From positions 128,001-192,000 of the forward strand of contig OZ242195.1 of assembly GCA_965205975.1 (NCBI GenBank): a DNA stretch of 64,000 nt. The letters run 5' to 3'. The DNA is from Candidatus Latescibacterota bacterium (GTDB lineage Bacteria; Latescibacterota; UBA2968). The notes beneath the pieces are model-generated. The model saw only the letters and a list, made by a program, of their open reading frames with translations. It had not been told where the DNA came from and ran no database searches. Below, piece after piece: positions 58,066 to 64,000 of this stretch. Made by a program: the position numbers and the translations under genes. Within the stretch, counting starts at the first letter, position 1. Each line of letters starts with the position of its first letter.

Positions 58066-58947
58066 ATGGGCAATCGGGTCAATCGCGCAGTTGAGTTGCT
58101 TTCAGAAGATCAACCGATCTATTATACAGGGGCACATACAGGGCATGTGCTTACGTTTGAACAGGGACAGAATGACGCCAGTACCTGGGCGGATTATATC
58201 AATGTGGGTATGGAACACGGGGCTTTTAATCTGGGAGGGCTTGACGACTATATGCGCGGTCTGGTCAGCGGGGGACCTACAAATAGCGGGCACAGGACGC
58301 CCGCTGTTATTGTTGAAGCTCCTGTGGAGGGCGCGTCGGAAAATATTGTGCGCTACAATGCCTGGCAATTTCGGCAGATTCTCGCGCGCGGTGTACACGG
58401 CATTTTGCTCTGTCAGGCGGAATCGCCCGATGCGATACGCGCTTTTGTCGAGTCGTGTCGCTATCCCATCAACAAAATCGGTGTTGGCCACGGCCTCAGT
58501 ACAGGTACGCGAGGCGTGGGGTCCGAATCGTCTGCAACAGCGATATGGGGGATTAGCCGCGATGAGTATATTCAGAAGGCAGATCCCTATCCGCTAAATC
58601 CCGATGGCGAACTGTTGCTGGGCATCAAGATTGAGAATGTGCGCGGTGCATCCAATATCGAACAGATTCTCAAGGTGCCCGGTATTGGGTTTGCCGAAAT
58701 GGGTCCGGGCGATTTGAGTATGTCGATGGGGTATTTGCACCGTCCAACGCCTTTTTCTCCCGAAATGCAAGAGGTGAGGGATCGCGTGAAGGCCGCGTGT
58801 GCAGAAAACGGCGTTGCTTTTCTCGAGGGAGGTAGTCCCGAGACGGTTGCCGCAAAAATAGACGAGGGTGTGCGCGTGGTTTCCGGTGGCAGGGAAGAAA
58901 TCGCACGTGTTGGGCGCGAATATTCAGGCCGTCGCATGCCGGTTTAA
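58066..58947 (+). CDS. HpcH/HpaI aldolase/citrate lyase family protein
   Basis: MEHG, RYP, GTRG, IKIEN, GPGDLSMSMG. Confidence 0.88.
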   Translation: MGNRVNRAVELLSEDQPIYYTGAHTGHVLTFEQGQNDASTWADYINVGMEHGAFNLGGLDDYMRGLVSGGPTNSGHRTPAVIVEAPVEGASENIVRYNAWQFRQILARGVHGILLCQAESPDAIRAFVESCRYPINKIGVGHGLSTGTRGVGSESSATAIWGISRDEYIQKADPYPLNPDGELLLGIKIENVRGASNIEQILKVPGIGFAEMGPGDLSMSMGYLHRPTPFSPEMQEVRDRVKAACAENGVAFLEGGSPETVAAKIDEGVRVVSGGREEIARVGREYSGRRMPV

Positions 58948-58950
58948 TAA

Positions 58951-58982
58951 AAAAATAGGGCTGTGCGATGTTTGCACAGCCC
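58951..58982 (-). terminator. Hairpin/terminator between convergent genes
   Basis: GGGCTGTGC-loop-GCACAGCCC next to an A tract. Confidence 0.65.
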
Positions 58983-59005
58983 CGAGTATTCGATTTAATA
59001 CGTGC

Positions 59006-59479
59006 TTAAAATGGATTGCCCTGGCGCGCCAGTTCAAATTTTCGCCAGCCGACTTGTTTGCCATTTTCGAACACTTTTTCCAGTGTGTAAAAGGAGGATG
59101 GGTCGTATTCTCGCCAGACGCCCGTTTTTTTATTTTTTAGGTATAGACCTTCTTCTTTTTTTACACCGTTTCTAAAATAAGATATCCAGTGTCCGTCTAT
59201 TACACCATTTGTCCAGTTGCCTTCTGTTTTTTTCTGTCCGTTGCTGTAAAATGTGATTTCAAGCCCGTCTTGCATGACGCCATTTTTGTATGTGCCCTGC
59301 CCGTGTACGTTGCCCGCGGCATCGTAATATGTCCAAACCCCAGTGCGGGCACCGCTGTCGTATTGCCCTTTTGCCACTACGCGGCCGTATTGTTTTATTT
59401 CCGTCTGTCCTTCAAATAGCGAGGGCATCTGACACCCGGCTGTTAGGATTCCCACGAGAAGAATTGTAATTTTGTTCAT
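59006..59479 (-). CDS. MORN-variant repeat (YwqK-like) lipoprotein
   Basis: Lipobox LTAGC; repeated G.W..Y..NG..K.EG.(W/Y) units. Confidence 0.82.
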   Translation of the reverse strand: MNKITILLVGILTAGCQMPSLFEGQTEIKQYGRVVAKGQYDSGARTGVWTYYDAAGNVHGQGTYKNGVMQDGLEITFYSNGQKKTEGNWTNGVIDGHWISYFRNGVKKEEGLYLKNKKTGVWREYDPSSFYTLEKVFENGKQVGWRKFELARQGNPF

Positions 59480-59712
59480 TTTTTACTCCTGTGTTGTTCT
59501 TTGGATATTTTATGTGATAAACTAATATACAAAACTGTTTTCATAAGGCAAAGACCGAAATGACAAATGATTCATTTAATACTTGTGAGTGTGCATAAAT
59601 TGGACCTGACCTCAACTACAAAGCGATTGCACTCAACGACACCTTTATTGTTACCACCGTCCTCTCATAGTATTTTGTAAACAGTTCGCTTATCGTGGAC
59701 AAAGAGTCCAAT

Positions 59713-60438
59713 ATGTTACTCATTGAACTGGGCCAACGCCTTCGCGCTCAGCGGGAACGCCTTGGCCTCAAGCAAAACGACGTTGCCAATGCCCTGCAGG
59801 TAAGTCCACAGGCCGTTTCCAAGTGGGAAAGGGGTGAAAACGGTCCCGACATTGCTACTCTGGGACCTCTTGCCAGATTGCTCGGCGTTTCGACGGACTG
59901 GCTTTTGGATGCACATGGCGAAAATCAAGATGTTTTTGATGCTACTATCTTTACCTCTACCGTCGTCGGTGCATATCAAAAATCATTACAAATGGAGGCG
60001 CGGGAGTTTGCAGCATGGGCAAATGGTATTTTGTTTCAACTGACCGAAGCTGTTTTGCGCCACGATGGCGTTCCGCTCAGATATATGGGTGACGCATTTT
60101 TGTGTTTTTTTTCCGGTGTTCACCATCAGCTTCGCGCTGCTCAAGCAGCGGCATTTTCCCAGCGGCTCATCAGCGAAGACCTGGTCATTGGTTTGAGCAG
60201 TGGTGAGATTTATTTGGGCGCAATGGGGCATCCCGATTACGCTCATCCCGATGTGACGGGAGAAGTGGTCAACATCGCGTTTATTGTTCGAGAATGGGCA
60301 GAAACAAATGTCCGCAAAGGAATTGCAGCAACGACATCTGTGTCGAACAATCTCGATGAAGTTTTTGATATTTCCCAACCCACAGAAATCAATTTTCGCG
60401 GCATTGAGACGCCCATCTCAATTTGTCAGATCAGATAG
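59713..60438 (+). CDS. XRE-family HTH regulator fused to degenerate class III nucleotide cyclase domain
   Basis: LKQNDVANALQVSPQAVSKWERG..PD HTH; RYMGDAFLCFF, IGLSSGEIYLG, GEVVNIA cyclase-like motifs (alternative GTG start 59695). Confidence 0.85.
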   Translation: MLLIELGQRLRAQRERLGLKQNDVANALQVSPQAVSKWERGENGPDIATLGPLARLLGVSTDWLLDAHGENQDVFDATIFTSTVVGAYQKSLQMEAREFAAWANGILFQLTEAVLRHDGVPLRYMGDAFLCFFSGVHHQLRAAQAAAFSQRLISEDLVIGLSSGEIYLGAMGHPDYAHPDVTGEVVNIAFIVREWAETNVRKGIAATTSVSNNLDEVFDISQPTEINFRGIETPISICQIR

Positions 60439-60483
60439 GGGTGTTCCTTGTCCGCGTGTGCCAACCGAGAGAAAGGATAAAAT

Positions 60484-61935
60484 ATGGCCGATGTAGTGTT
60501 GCCCGATAGCGCGATTGATATTCAAATTCCCGATTATTCGCATCTGCCCTATAAAGTCGCCGATATGTCTCAGGCAGATTTTGGACGAAAAGAGATCACA
60601 ATTGCCGAGCAAGAGATGCCCGGTTTGATGGCTGTGCGCGAAAAATACGCAGATCAGAAACCTCTGAAGGGTGCCCGCATAATGGGTTCGCTTCACATGA
60701 CGATTCAGACCGCTGTGTTGATCGAGTCGCTCAGGGTGTTGGGGGCCGATGTGCGCTGGGCGTCGTGCAATATTTTTTCTACCCAGGACCACGCAGCCGC
60801 CGCTATTGCAGAAACGGGTACGCCGGTTTATGCGTGGAAGGGCGAGTCGCTGGAAGAATATTGGGAATGCACTTTGCAAGCACTCAATTTTGTGGAGGGT
60901 GGACCGACACTTATTGTCGATGATGGAGGAGATGCGACGTTGCTGGTTCACCGGGGGTATCAGGCTGAAGACGATCCTTCGATTCTCGATGAGCCAACCG
61001 ATAATCGCGAATTGGAGATTGTCAATGCCGTGCTGAGGCGGCAACTCGAGCGCGATCCGCGTTTTTGGCACAGTATGGCTGCGGATATTCAGGGCGTGTC
61101 AGAGGAGACTACAACAGGTGTTCACCGCCTGTATCAGATGCGGGATGACGGCACGCTTCTTTTTCCCGCGATCAATGTCAATGATTCGGTGACCAAATCG
61201 AAATTTGATAATCTCTATGGCTGCCGCGAATCGCTTGCCGACGGTATTAAGCGCGCGACGGATGTTATGGTCGCTGGCAAGGTCGTTTGCGTGTGTGGTT
61301 ACGGCGATGTGGGCAAGGGATGTGCCCAATCTATGCGGGGATTTGGCGCGCGTGTGTTGGTGACGGAGATCGATCCGATATGTGCTTTGCAGGCGGCGAT
61401 GGAGGGTTTTGAAGTGACGACTGTGGAGGATGCCCTTTCCGAAGCCAATATTTTTGTTACGACGACGGGAAATACGGATATTATCCGCATTGAGCACATG
61501 GTAAATATGCTCGACCAATCCATTGTGTGCAATATCGGGCATTTTGACAATGAGATTCAGGTCGATAAGCTGGTCGATTATCCGGGTATTGTGCACGAAA
61601 ATATCAAGCCGCAGGTCGATAAATACACGTTTCCAGATGGGCAGGCGATTTTTTTGCTCGCGGAAGGCCGTCTGGTCAATCTCGGTTGTGCAACCGGGCA
61701 TCCTTCTTTTGTGATGTCCAATTCGTTTACCAATCAGGTGCTGGCGCAGATGGATCTGTGGGCACAACAACGCGAAGTCGGCGTTTATACGTTGTCCAAA
61801 CACCTCGACGAGGAGGTTGCGCGCCTTCATCTTGAAAAACTGGGTGTAAAGTTGACCCAACTCACGCAGAAGCAGGCCGATTATATTGGCGTGTCTGTCG
61901 AAGGTCCGTATAAACCCGGTCATTACCGGTATTAA
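60484..61935 (+). CDS. ahcY: Adenosylhomocysteinase
   Basis: [55 protein letters not shown]. Confidence 0.98.
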
Positions 61936-61978
61936 CGATTAGGGGACTGGGAGCTTATCCCCAGTCCCAACCTTTTTT

Positions 61979-62857
61979 ATGCGATTTTTAGACTATTTTA
62001 CCGGCAATCAATCGGTCATTTCGTTTGAGATTTATCCGCCGCAGACGTCGGGTGGTATGCGCGCGCTCAAAGCGCGGGTTGTTCCCAATTTGCTCAAGCT
62101 GAATCCCAGCTATATGACGGTTACGTATGGCGCAGGTGGCTCGACACGCGCCAAGACGCTGGAGATTGCCTCGCTTATTCAGAATGAATTTGGGCTGACT
62201 GCGGCGTGTCATCTCACCTGTGTGGGGTCGTCCCGGACAGATATCGATGATATTTTGCAGGCGATTCGCGCAGAGGGTATCCGCAATATTGTTGCGCTTC
62301 GCGGCGATCCCCCGCGTGGCGAAGATACTTTTGTGCCCGCGAAGGATGGATTTGCTTATGGCAATGAGCTTGTGGCGCATATTCGCAGTACAGAACCGAA
62401 AGACGATGGGTTTGGGTTGGCTGTTGCGGGGTATCCCGAGAAACACCTCGAAGCGCCCGATTTTGATACGGATATTGCAAATTTGAAGCGGAAAGTTGAG
62501 TCAGGTGGGGATATTGTTATTACGCAGCTTTTTTATAATAACGATCACTTTTTTCGTTTTGTCGATCGCGTGCGTGCAGCCCATATCACAGCACCTGTTG
62601 TTCCGGGTCTGATGCCGATTCTCGCGGCGGGACAGATCCAGCGCATCGCATCTTTGTGTGGGGCTGAGATTCCGGGGGATTTGCAGGATCAACTCAAGGG
62701 GGCTGTGGATGATGAAGACAAGGCGATGAAAATTGGGGTAGATCAGTGCATCGAGCAGGCAACCGAATTGCTCGAACAGGGCGTGCCGGGTATTCACTTT
62801 TACGTGCTGAACAAATCCACTCACATGCGCCGGATTATCAGCGCGCTTCCTCTCTAA
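61979..62857 (+). CDS. metF: Methylenetetrahydrofolate reductase
   Basis: SFEIYPP, VTYGAGG, HLTC, ALRGDPP, GYPEKH, ITQLF, IHFYVLN. Confidence 0.97.
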   Translation: MRFLDYFTGNQSVISFEIYPPQTSGGMRALKARVVPNLLKLNPSYMTVTYGAGGSTRAKTLEIASLIQNEFGLTAACHLTCVGSSRTDIDDILQAIRAEGIRNIVALRGDPPRGEDTFVPAKDGFAYGNELVAHIRSTEPKDDGFGLAVAGYPEKHLEAPDFDTDIANLKRKVESGGDIVITQLFYNNDHFFRFVDRVRAAHITAPVVPGLMPILAAGQIQRIASLCGAEIPGDLQDQLKGAVDDEDKAMKIGVDQCIEQATELLEQGVPGIHFYVLNKSTHMRRIISALPL

Positions 62858-63455
62858 GTGGAAATTTCTCAGTGATTAGCATAATTGGCTTTTTATTGGC
62901 GAGCACTCTGTAGGTGCGGCTGAGTAGTGGTTCCCCTTCAAGATGCGCAATGGCTTCCGGCAGATCCCGTGCGGTTTCACAGCAGCACCACAACAATTCA
63001 CGGCGGGTTTCCAGTCCGCTGTTTTGCAAAATCCCTCCCAATCCCGCAGGATCTGATTCCAATTCGTCCAAAATGCCTTTTGGCAAGTGTTGCGGTACAA
63101 TGAGGGATGTGGCATACGCCTGAATTTTTGGCGTATCTTTGCCGATTGAGGGCGTTTGTAGTACTGCTTGTCGTGCTATGACGTGTGCCCCTGCTGGCAG
63201 TTCAAGCCAGATATGTTCTGTGCAGAGCGTCTGTTCCGTCTGGTGGAGGATCGCGACTTCCACCGGCGCGAGTGTATAGGCTTCGATGAGTCTTGTGACG
63301 GTGCCGTCGGTGACGATTAATGCCCGCTGGAATGGCGTTAATTGCGCGATGTTGATTTCTCCAGACATCGCTGGCCTTTCGGCCTGTGCGACAAATATAT
63401 TTTTTACGTGTGTGTCAATAAAGGTTGTCGAATTGAAAATTGAATCTGTCTTCAT
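62838..63455 (-). CDS. Chorismate pyruvate-lyase-like (UbiC/DUF98) protein
   Basis: LIVTDGTVTRLIEA, YATS, GLG.IL....LETRRE, SRTY, MLITEKFP. Confidence 0.8.
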   Translation of the reverse strand: MKTDSIFNSTTFIDTHVKNIFVAQAERPAMSGEINIAQLTPFQRALIVTDGTVTRLIEAYTLAPVEVAILHQTEQTLCTEHIWLELPAGAHVIARQAVLQTPSIGKDTPKIQAYATSLIVPQHLPKGILDELESDPAGLGGILQNSGLETRRELLWCCCETARDLPEAIAHLEGEPLLSRTYRVLANKKPIMLITEKFPLREEAR

Positions 63456-63577
63456 CGAGCTATTGTCCTTTCATATATACAGTCGTTGCGCAACGCACTT
63501 TAGACACATAAGGACAAAAAAAGTTCTGAAACATTGCATGTGTGATTCTAATCCGTTATTTTGATGGGAAGAGCGCA

Positions 63578-64000
63578 ATGAGAATAGTTACATGGAATGT
63601 AAATGGATTGCGGGCTGCACTTCGCAAGGGGTTTATGGATCATATTAAAACGCTAAACCCCGATGTGATCCTTTTGCAAGAAATTCGCGTTTTGCCCGAG
63701 CAACTATCTGCGAGAGAACGCAACCCCGAGGGATGGCATGTTATCTGGCATCCAGCCGAGCGCAAGGGCTATGCGGGTACAGCGGTATGGTCTCGTACGC
63801 CTTTAGGAGAAGAAGAACGCGGTGTGGGCGGGACCGATTCTGAAGGTCGGATTTTGCGGGTGAACACTCGAGGTATTCAATTCGTCAGTGTGTACCTGCC
63901 CTCGGGGTCATCCGGCGAGGAGCGCCAGGCGATCAAGGAGTGCTGGATGGATCGCTTTCGCCCCTGGGCCGATGGCCTGGTGAAAAAACGGGTTCCTACA
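63578..64000 (+). CDS. xth: Exodeoxyribonuclease III (partial, runs off window)
   Basis: Manual translation MRIVTWNVNGLRAA...DVILLQEIR...KGYAGTA...EGR...SVYLPSG. Confidence 0.93.
   Translation, partial: MRIVTWNVNGLRAALRKGFMDHIKTLNPDVILLQEIRVLPEQLSARERNPEGWHVIWHPAERKGYAGTAVWSRTPLGEEERGVGGTDSEGRILRVNTRGIQFVSVYLPSGSSGEERQAIKECWMDRFRPWADGLVKKRVPT

Follow-up and report, generated by a model that had tools for sequence, protein, structure and literature searches.

We have analyzed a gene within a 64,000-nucleotide stretch of DNA from Candidatus Latescibacterota bacterium (contig OZ242195.1, positions 128,001 to 192,000; the whole stretch is called the window, and its own numbering is used throughout). 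The gene joins an XRE-family helix-turn-helix (HTH) to a degenerate class III nucleotide cyclase domain and lies directly upstream of ahcY and metF. The best explanation for our results, to which we give a probability of roughly 60%, is that the gene encodes a one-component transcription factor for the methyl cycle (the cycle of S-adenosylmethionine, SAM, and S-adenosylhomocysteine, SAH), with the dead cyclase domain as its sensor and activation as its mode of action. Its homologues very probably constitute a new family of methyl-cycle transcription factors with a repurposed cyclase domain. Six lines of evidence were computed here: the fold, the residue pattern, gene linkage, the operator, operator sites in trans, and the joint loss of regulator and operator.

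An XRE-cyclase fusion heads an ahcY-metF operon

The features of the locus that carry the argument are as follows.

59612-59626, + strand: distal operator site (15 bp), with the TCAAC half intact and the right half degenerate (de novo motif, site table)
59633-59647, + strand: proximal operator site (15 bp), 21 bp after the distal site, abutting the -35 box and centred at about -43 (site table)
59648-59653, + strand: predicted -35 box TTGTTA, 4 of 6 matches to consensus (its TTG is part of the de novo motif)
59671-59676, + strand: predicted -10 box TATTTT, 17 bp past the -35 box (family TAnnnT spacing)
59713-60438, + strand: regulator gene (XRE-HTH plus degenerate class III cyclase domain), ATG to stop, 241 amino acids (aa)
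59713-59904, + strand: XRE-family HTH, residues 1-64 (Pfam HTH_3, homologue alignment)
59929-60438, + strand: degenerate class III nucleotide cyclase domain, residues 73-241 (alignments, Foldseek, homodimer model)
60484-61935, + strand: ahcY, SAH hydrolase (TIGR00936, 622.9 bits, cut-off 497.6)
61979-62857, + strand: metF, methylenetetrahydrofolate reductase (TIGR00676, 316.4 bits, cut-off 293.7)

The Met codon at 59713 corresponds to the start in 119 of 121 homologues. All three genes are on the + strand, with 45 bp between the regulator gene and ahcY and 43 bp between ahcY and metF, and the open reading frame coordinates thus agree with the arrangement given in the original prediction, which was made from the sequence alone. 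In a hidden Markov model scan for the two halves of the fusion, HTH_3 matched residues 10-64 well above its cut-off (E 3.5e-16; 59.4 bits versus 23), and Guanylate_cyc matched residues 79-230 only below threshold (E 0.0089). The cyclase fold itself was confirmed by two other routes. A profile search of the PDB with ten domain sequences led to solved class III cyclases (Cya2, E 2.3e-13; CyaC; CyaB), and an AlphaFold2 model of the regulator (predicted local distance difference test, pLDDT, 89.9) had class III cyclases as all of its top Foldseek matches (E 1e-12). Three unnamed XRE clusters came up in the ESM Atlas (0.98-0.99), which offers no function for them.

The cyclase domain keeps its purine contacts

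HMMER alignments bear out the residue register that had been proposed: T83 takes the position of the first metal-binding Asp, D127 is the second, N187 is retained, and I191 occupies the position of the catalytic (transition-state) Arg. The adenine-specifying pair, a point absent from the original prediction, is also kept in the family; the window protein has D180 together with an Arg at position 123, where most homologues have Lys. To judge from the sequence, the regulator would fail as an active class III cyclase, since the metal Asp pair and the Asn/Arg pair are both incomplete, although the fold and the purine pair are present.

This pattern holds for the family. We compared 163 homologues of less than 80% identity (the frameshifted L089 was excluded) with 68 long HTH-less cyclases from the same searches. 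The first metal Asp is present in 17 of the 163 homologues versus 62 of the 68 cyclases, and the catalytic Arg in 18 versus 60. Retained positions include the Lys at 123 (154/163 versus 59/68), the second metal Asp (156/163 versus 64/68), and the Asn at 187 (149/163 versus 62/68). The adenine position, 180, is Asp in 156 homologues and Thr in 54 of the 68 cyclases. The triphosphate Arg position, 158, is variable among the homologues and lacks Arg in the window protein. By the roles assigned to metal, phosphate, base, and ribose contacts in the available text of PMC2576301, the family has lost its metal and phosphate contacts and kept those to base and ribose. New relative to cyclases are the near-invariant aromatic residues Y176 (154/163) and F190 (145/163), with W102 also conserved, and the recognition helix of the HTH is nearly invariant as well (Q33, A34, V35, S36, K37, W38, E39).

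A homodimer model of the regulator scored 0.89, versus 0.00 for the best control, with a pLDDT of 86 and agreement between runs in at least 95% of contacts; of known cases, 20 of 30 solved homodimers and 1 of 23 single chains attain the mark used here. The pass is probably owed to a resemblance to cyclase dimers of solved structure. The modelled interface is limited to residues 73-233 and includes Lys123 and Asp180, and Y88 packs on N187 and I191 of the partner chain.

A few relatives stand apart. Both metal Asp residues, the Lys, the adenine Asp, and the Arg are kept in L136/L137, L187, P0133, and P0140, and L136 and L187 sit behind the same operator as the rest of the family (33.3 and 31.0 bits). 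From their residues, these proteins may be still-active intermediates. Three remoter XRE plus cyclase-like proteins (P0192, P0206, P0259) have a different and more degenerate pocket and possibly form a sister family.

The family is linked to methyl-cycle genes in many phyla

The protein search gave 867 matches, the best 120 of which are full-length with 56-98% identity. Relatives at 96-99% identity carry the label Candidatus Latescibacterota, and "class 3 adenylate cyclase" is the present label of such proteins in some databases. Loci were found in Latescibacterota/Gemmatimonadota, Entotheonella, Hydrogenedentota, Sumerlaeota, Nitrospirota, Nitrospinota, UASB14, Planctomycetota, Acidobacteriota, Spirochaetota, and deltaproteobacteria. 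Within the window's phylum, a true regulator (E of at most 1e-34; the next match is at 1e-10) is present in 28 of 168 genomes, and ahcY scores above its cut-off in 150 of them.

Gene neighbourhoods were surveyed at 128 loci (48 from genomes, 80 from metagenomes), which form 77 clusters at 85% identity; the counts leave out the near-identical loci of the window's own genus (L031-L042, for which L043 stands in) and weak generic cyclase matches (L090-L109). The gene after the regulator is ahcY in 31 clusters, a small membrane protein in 12, metE in 5, adenosine deaminase in 2, and a pterin-binding methyltransferase, thrC, or purA in 1 each. In 2 further clusters ahcY lies within 5.5 kb, and in 2 the contig is too short. 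Among the listed members of the small-membrane-protein clusters, thyX comes next in 4 and metE in 1. Linkage to ahcY is spread over several separate clades of the tree; the order ahcY then metF is found only in the window's own family, and elsewhere metF comes after metE (L080, L165). The conserved linkage that the original prediction anticipated was therefore found over many phyla, together with an operator and a regulon in trans.

The small membrane-like protein (122-134 aa; L150:5531-5932, L209:1084-1449, and 10 more clusters) has no Pfam or NCBIfam match. In one clade its gene is the first behind the operator, and thyX, a QueF-like gene, or metE comes after it; the protein is possibly a folate- or methionine-related transporter or sensor. 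In one genus (L066-L069, L088) the regulator and operator lie upstream of a long threonine synthase, and ahcY there is without an operator (G133). Plant-type threonine synthases are activated by SAM. The Nitrospiraceae genome G185 (L269, L272) has two regulator-ahcY units with one operator each.

A tandem operator abuts the promoter in a single register

An expectation-maximization search from random starts was applied to 70 upstream regions (the remaining 7 of the 77 clusters had too little upstream DNA). The motif recovered de novo reads TCAAC-N5-(c/g)(g/t)T(g/c)A, followed after 6 bp by a second such site and then by TTG, and its log-likelihood was 923 for the real input versus 117 for shuffled input. 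This operator is present in 52 of the 70 regions. The spacing of half-site pairs peaks at 21 bp (39 regions, the next spacing having 8), and in many regions the distal site is a perfect TCAAC-N5-GTTGA palindrome. A TAnnnT box lies at a spacer of 17 from the TTG hexamer in 32 of the 52 operator-bearing regions; no other spacer between 13 and 21 accounts for more than 5. Across many phyla the proximal site keeps exactly the same register, reaching up to the -35 box and never extending over it. Of the 52 promoters, 38 have a -35 box with 3-4 of 6 consensus matches. The operator tracks gene linkage, being present in 47 of 49 linked clusters versus 5 of 20 unlinked ones.

The operator in the window is the best tandem match in the 5.56-Mb genome (30.5 bits, with the next at 19.2) and still ranks first when 13 close loci are held out of training (26.4, with the next at 19.1). 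Transcription would be expected to start near 59683, and direct binding of the regulator to DNA is, on the pattern of these sites, highly probable. A generic promoter scan missed the predicted promoter, whose -35 box is below threshold, and returned 3 sites versus 4.0 expected. Two other scanning models were rejected: the single 15-bp site was uninformative genome-wide, its top matches falling mostly in coding sequence, and a model of the proximal site plus promoter was not separated from shuffles. At L027 a second strong operator (988-1026, - strand, 35.4 bits) points away from the regulator's own operator; the regulator member at this locus keeps the first Asp and lies upstream of a Trm112-like gene.

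The operator accompanies methyl-cycle genes away from the regulator

At L061, L062, and L131 the operator is found upstream of ahcY, 3-5 kb off, and none is found upstream of the regulator. We scanned ten genomes in which the regulator gene is operator-less. A pattern match precedes ahcY in G168, G171, G172, and G177, and other matches precede metF (G169), metK (G175), a homocysteine methyltransferase gene (G172), and an operon of a small protein, thyX, and a QueF-like gene (G176). Among the 27 matches displayed, all five with TAnnnT at a spacer of 17 belong to these eight marker-gene sites. Direct inspection upstream of ahcY added one site each in G170 (25.4 bits) and in G169 (its second), so that 8 of the 10 genomes carry the operator upstream of a methyl-cycle gene or the thyX operon. 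Ten more genomes with linked regulators gave 9 pattern matches, all before regulator genes except L268; one is the second regulator-ahcY copy in G185.

Across the 168 genomes of the phylum, all 11 exact matches are in regulator-bearing genomes, and with one mismatch allowed there are matches in 27 of the 28 regulator-bearing genomes and in 20 of the 140 others. The sister genera (G043, G044, G063-G066) have 5 exact and 3 one-mismatch trans matches, which lie upstream of an adenosine-deaminase-like gene (G043, G044, G063, G064, G065) and of metH (G063, G065, G066); the metH sites score 22.9-29.1 bits. Upstream of metH in the window genome (G000 C1 1364500-1364580), the proximal palindrome is perfect and the -35 and -10 boxes are in register, but the distal half is degenerate. 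Within the window's genus, 14 of 15 genomes that have the regulator carry the metH operator, versus 0 of 6 that lack it; two of the 14 read TAG in place of TTG. No strong operator was found within 500 bp upstream of metK, thrC, or the deaminase-like gene of the window genome. Because the operator follows ahcY, metF, metK, metH, and the deaminase-like gene when these are separated from the regulator, it is most unlikely to be just an auto-operator. As judged from the sites, the conserved operator is the predicted mark of a methyl-cycle regulon that extends beyond the regulator's own operon.

The deaminase-like gene encodes a divergent adenosine-deaminase-family protein of 450 aa that is below the TIGR01430 cut-off (L248:332-1690; G000 C1 386559-387911). 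It lies behind the operator in five genomes and directly follows ahcY in Entotheonella L045, and its substrate could be adenosine, SAH, or methylthioadenosine. A one-mismatch match at G000 1492716-1492780, recurring in the genus, was rejected on account of its low score and its presence in a regulator-less genome as well.

Loss of the regulator and the direction of control

Six genomes of the window's genus have no regulator. These have a different promoter, with a TTGAC-type -35, right before ahcY-metF, and upstream of their metH genes the whole operator-promoter block is absent. The alternative promoter block before ahcY is one and the same in all six (L253-L258; G078, G081, G082, G085, G087, G091), two of which nest among regulator-bearing genomes on the metH tree; the shared block suggests allele exchange by recombination.

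The original prediction took the protein to be a repressor, which is probably wrong. Activation is favoured because the register of the proximal site is fixed, flush with the -35 box and not over it, because most -35 boxes are imperfect, and because the regulator-less relatives have replaced (ahcY) or deleted (metH) the promoter. Had a repressor been lost, a working promoter would remain, whereas these relatives changed theirs. On the architecture of these promoters we consider activation reasonably likely. Activators at this position, such as lambda CI at PRM and CRP at class II promoters, touch sigma region 4.

The same regulon could nevertheless be under repression, with a dimer at -50 to -36 hindering RNA polymerase and a ligand (SAH, as for SahR) releasing it, or under a two-way switch like that of controller proteins, in which the distal site activates and the proximal site represses. 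Most XRE proteins repress, and 14 of the 52 promoters are near consensus, with a -35 box of 5 or 6 matches, so an activator would not be needed there. The available text of PMC8877191 describes SahR, whose core regulon is the same, as a repressor, and that of PMC2275141 ascribes opposite effects to the strong distal and weak proximal sites of C.AhdI; here, too, the distal site is often a perfect palindrome. Against these arrangements stand a proximal site that is never over the -35 box and keeps a single register in many phyla, and the regulator-less relatives with another ahcY promoter and no metH operator-promoter block. We regard repression or such a two-way switch as unlikely.

Proposed mechanism and its alternatives

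In the mechanism that we favour, the cyclase domains would dimerise head-to-tail and rebuild two symmetric purine pockets at their interface. These pockets would keep the adenine and ribose contacts, would no longer make cAMP, and would bind an adenosyl metabolite that carries no phosphate, SAH being the likeliest. The tandem 15-bp sites, 21 bp apart, would be occupied by one dimer each, and the proximal dimer, at about -43 (spanning about -50 to -36), would sit beside RNA polymerase and activate a weak sigma70-type promoter. The regulon would comprise, in the window genome, the regulator's own operon with ahcY and metF plus metH elsewhere, and in other lineages the adenosine-deaminase-like gene, metE, metK, and folate/methyl-transfer genes. 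The products of ahcY, the deaminase gene, metF, metH, metE, and metK would together clear SAH, remove adenosine, and re-methylate homocysteine.

Because metal and phosphate contacts are lost and base and ribose contacts kept, an unphosphorylated adenosyl ligand would suit the pocket, and on these residues we think such a ligand fairly probable. The function of the regulon and its match to the core regulon of SahR (PMC4239095, available text) make SAH the likeliest signal, although for SAH specifically the chance is slightly short of even. The fullest form of the proposal is tentative: a class III cyclase domain became a SAH sensor that activates methyl-cycle genes by contact with RNA polymerase at -43, in about ten mostly uncultured phyla, and the members with a full catalytic set behind the same operator (L136/L137) are living intermediates.

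Other readings concern the pocket. It might sense another adenine compound (SAM, adenosine, AMP/ATP, or cAMP) or nothing at all, the cyclase domain then being a dimerisation module and the level of the regulator fixed or autoregulated. Since Lys123 and Asp180 fall within the modelled interface, their conservation could be structural, and adenosine deaminase and purA as targets would suit an adenosine or AMP signal. However, the selective keeping of base and ribose contacts exceeds what dimerisation needs, and the core regulon equals that of the SAH sensor SahR in the available text of PMC4239095. As for cAMP, no class III cyclase that could supply it was found in the window's genome, other cyclase classes being outside the search. 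Overall we hold these readings to be somewhat unlikely. A still-active, non-canonical cyclase, alone or in a heterodimer, that couples cAMP synthesis to transcription is very improbable. Most homologues retain the second Asp, the Lys, the adenine Asp, and the Asn, the full set survives in a minority, and some bacterial cyclases are active without the canonical Asn or Arg; yet the first metal Asp is missing in 146 of 163 homologues and the Arg in 145, the triphosphate Arg position is variable, and the genome search gave no intact class III partner for a heterodimer. Finally, an autoregulated XRE protein might have been inherited alongside ahcY by chance, with the motif serving as its own operator only. 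The window genome's only strong tandem site does precede the regulator itself, and the operator also occurs without a marker neighbour in the 5 unlinked clusters, but the departure of the operator from the regulator in the company of ahcY, metF, metK, metH, and the deaminase-like gene largely refutes this idea, which we consider improbable in the extreme.

Several observations weigh against control of the methyl cycle by an activator with a dead cyclase sensor, in addition to the near-consensus -35 boxes. Some concern the operator sites. The ten-genome scan gave 28 pattern matches versus 14 for the reversed control pattern, and 20 of the 28 are not upstream of a marker gene. An operator upstream of ahcY was not found in G173, G189, G133, G160, G178, or G190, and in G174 that region contains a single isolated palindrome. 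In one of three genome shuffles a tandem site scored 27.3, versus 26.4 for the window's held-out operator. The metH site of the window genome scores 7.5 bits, rank 355 alone, and rests on its co-occurrence with the regulator and on the stronger sites of the sister genera; G089, moreover, retains the regulator and has lost the metH site. Others concern the family as a whole. In 20 of the 77 clusters no marker gene is alongside, and thrC, purA, thyX, and QueF-like targets are outside the strict SAH cycle. L137, P0133, and P0140 retain both metal Asp residues, Lys, adenine Asp, Asn, and Arg. The six genomes without the regulator do not represent six independent events, since they are kin: four make up one clade and the other two are nested.

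Other features of the locus

Between ahcY and metF there is one further element.

61943-61968, + strand: GC-rich hairpin with a U-tail, single copy in the genome

The hairpin is missing in some relatives and may reduce read-through into metF, thereby lowering metF expression. In the stretch from 61935 to 61979, a Shine-Dalgarno sequence is not evident upstream of metF, and a U-run stands right before the ATG in all examined relatives. On the - strand, 59006-59479 holds a divergent MORN-repeat lipoprotein-like gene that stands beside the operon across the genus and in a sister genus; it shares the intergenic region with the operon, and evidence of co-regulation was not found. A Chorismate-lyase-like (Rv2949c) gene at 62838-63455 (- strand) is convergent with metF and overlaps its end by 20 bp.

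No Rfam riboswitch was found in 58900-63600 down to E 5 and no SAM-I riboswitch genome-wide; the genome search for SAH riboswitches was run without a positive control. Among RNA contigs from four runs, two cover the entire region and give no start, strand, or level. DNA carry-over is likely because these contigs include the divergent intergenic stretch.

Comparison with known systems

No description of a family of XRE proteins with a dead cyclase domain was found in the open-licence PMC and bioRxiv literature, with RegPrecise and subscription journals outside that scope. If the proposal is correct, the family adds a new and unrelated solution for methyl-cycle control beside MetJ, MetR, SahR/SamR, and riboswitches, and a cyclase homology domain would serve as a ligand sensor instead of an enzyme. 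Members with a full catalytic set would then make it possible to assay how a signalling enzyme turned into a transcription factor that senses a metabolite. The defined operator allows regulon mapping in uncultured phyla, and a small soluble factor of 241 aa with a 36-bp operator could become a genetically encoded reporter of SAH or SAM.

An XRE-type HTH and two adjacent operator sites upstream of an autoregulated promoter are also known for lambda CI at PRM. The restriction-modification controller C.AhdI is alike in this respect, as described in the available text of PMC2275141. Unlike these two proteins, which have no metabolite-sensing domain, the regulator family has an operator that recurs at unlinked metabolic genes, and its proximal site ends where the -35 box begins. 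BzdR (PMC3602430) likewise fuses an XRE domain to an effector domain that descends from an enzyme and is no longer catalytic, but in the text available its fold is that of a degenerate shikimate kinase, and its ligand and pathway are different; the BzdR-type family NF006015 matches only residues 2-80 of the regulator (27.6 bits versus a cut-off of 204).

The ArsR-family regulators SahR/SamR of Proteobacteria offer the closest parallel in function. According to the available text of PMC4239095 and PMC8877191, their core regulon consists of the regulator gene, ahcY, metH, metF, metK, and sometimes metE, with autoregulation and a likely adenosyl effector. They have an ArsR head, in contrast to the XRE head and cyclase-fold sensor found here, and no ArsR family is among the Pfam and NCBIfam matches of the regulator down to E 1. 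The SahR motif is a 20- or 24-bp palindrome, ATC-10nt-GAT (PMC4239095), compared with the tandem 15-bp TCAAC-N5-GTTGA sites described above, and SahR is described as a repressor, whereas the present regulator is probably an activator, from mostly uncultured phyla.

With the class III cyclases CyaC, Cya2, and CyaB, as covered by the available text of PMC2576301, the regulator family shares the fold, the modelled symmetric head-to-tail dimer, the adenine Lys/Asp pair, the second Asp, and the ribose Asn. It differs in that about nine in ten of its members have lost the first Asp, the transition-state Arg, and the triphosphate Arg, and in its conserved W102, Y176, and F190 and its fusion to an HTH.

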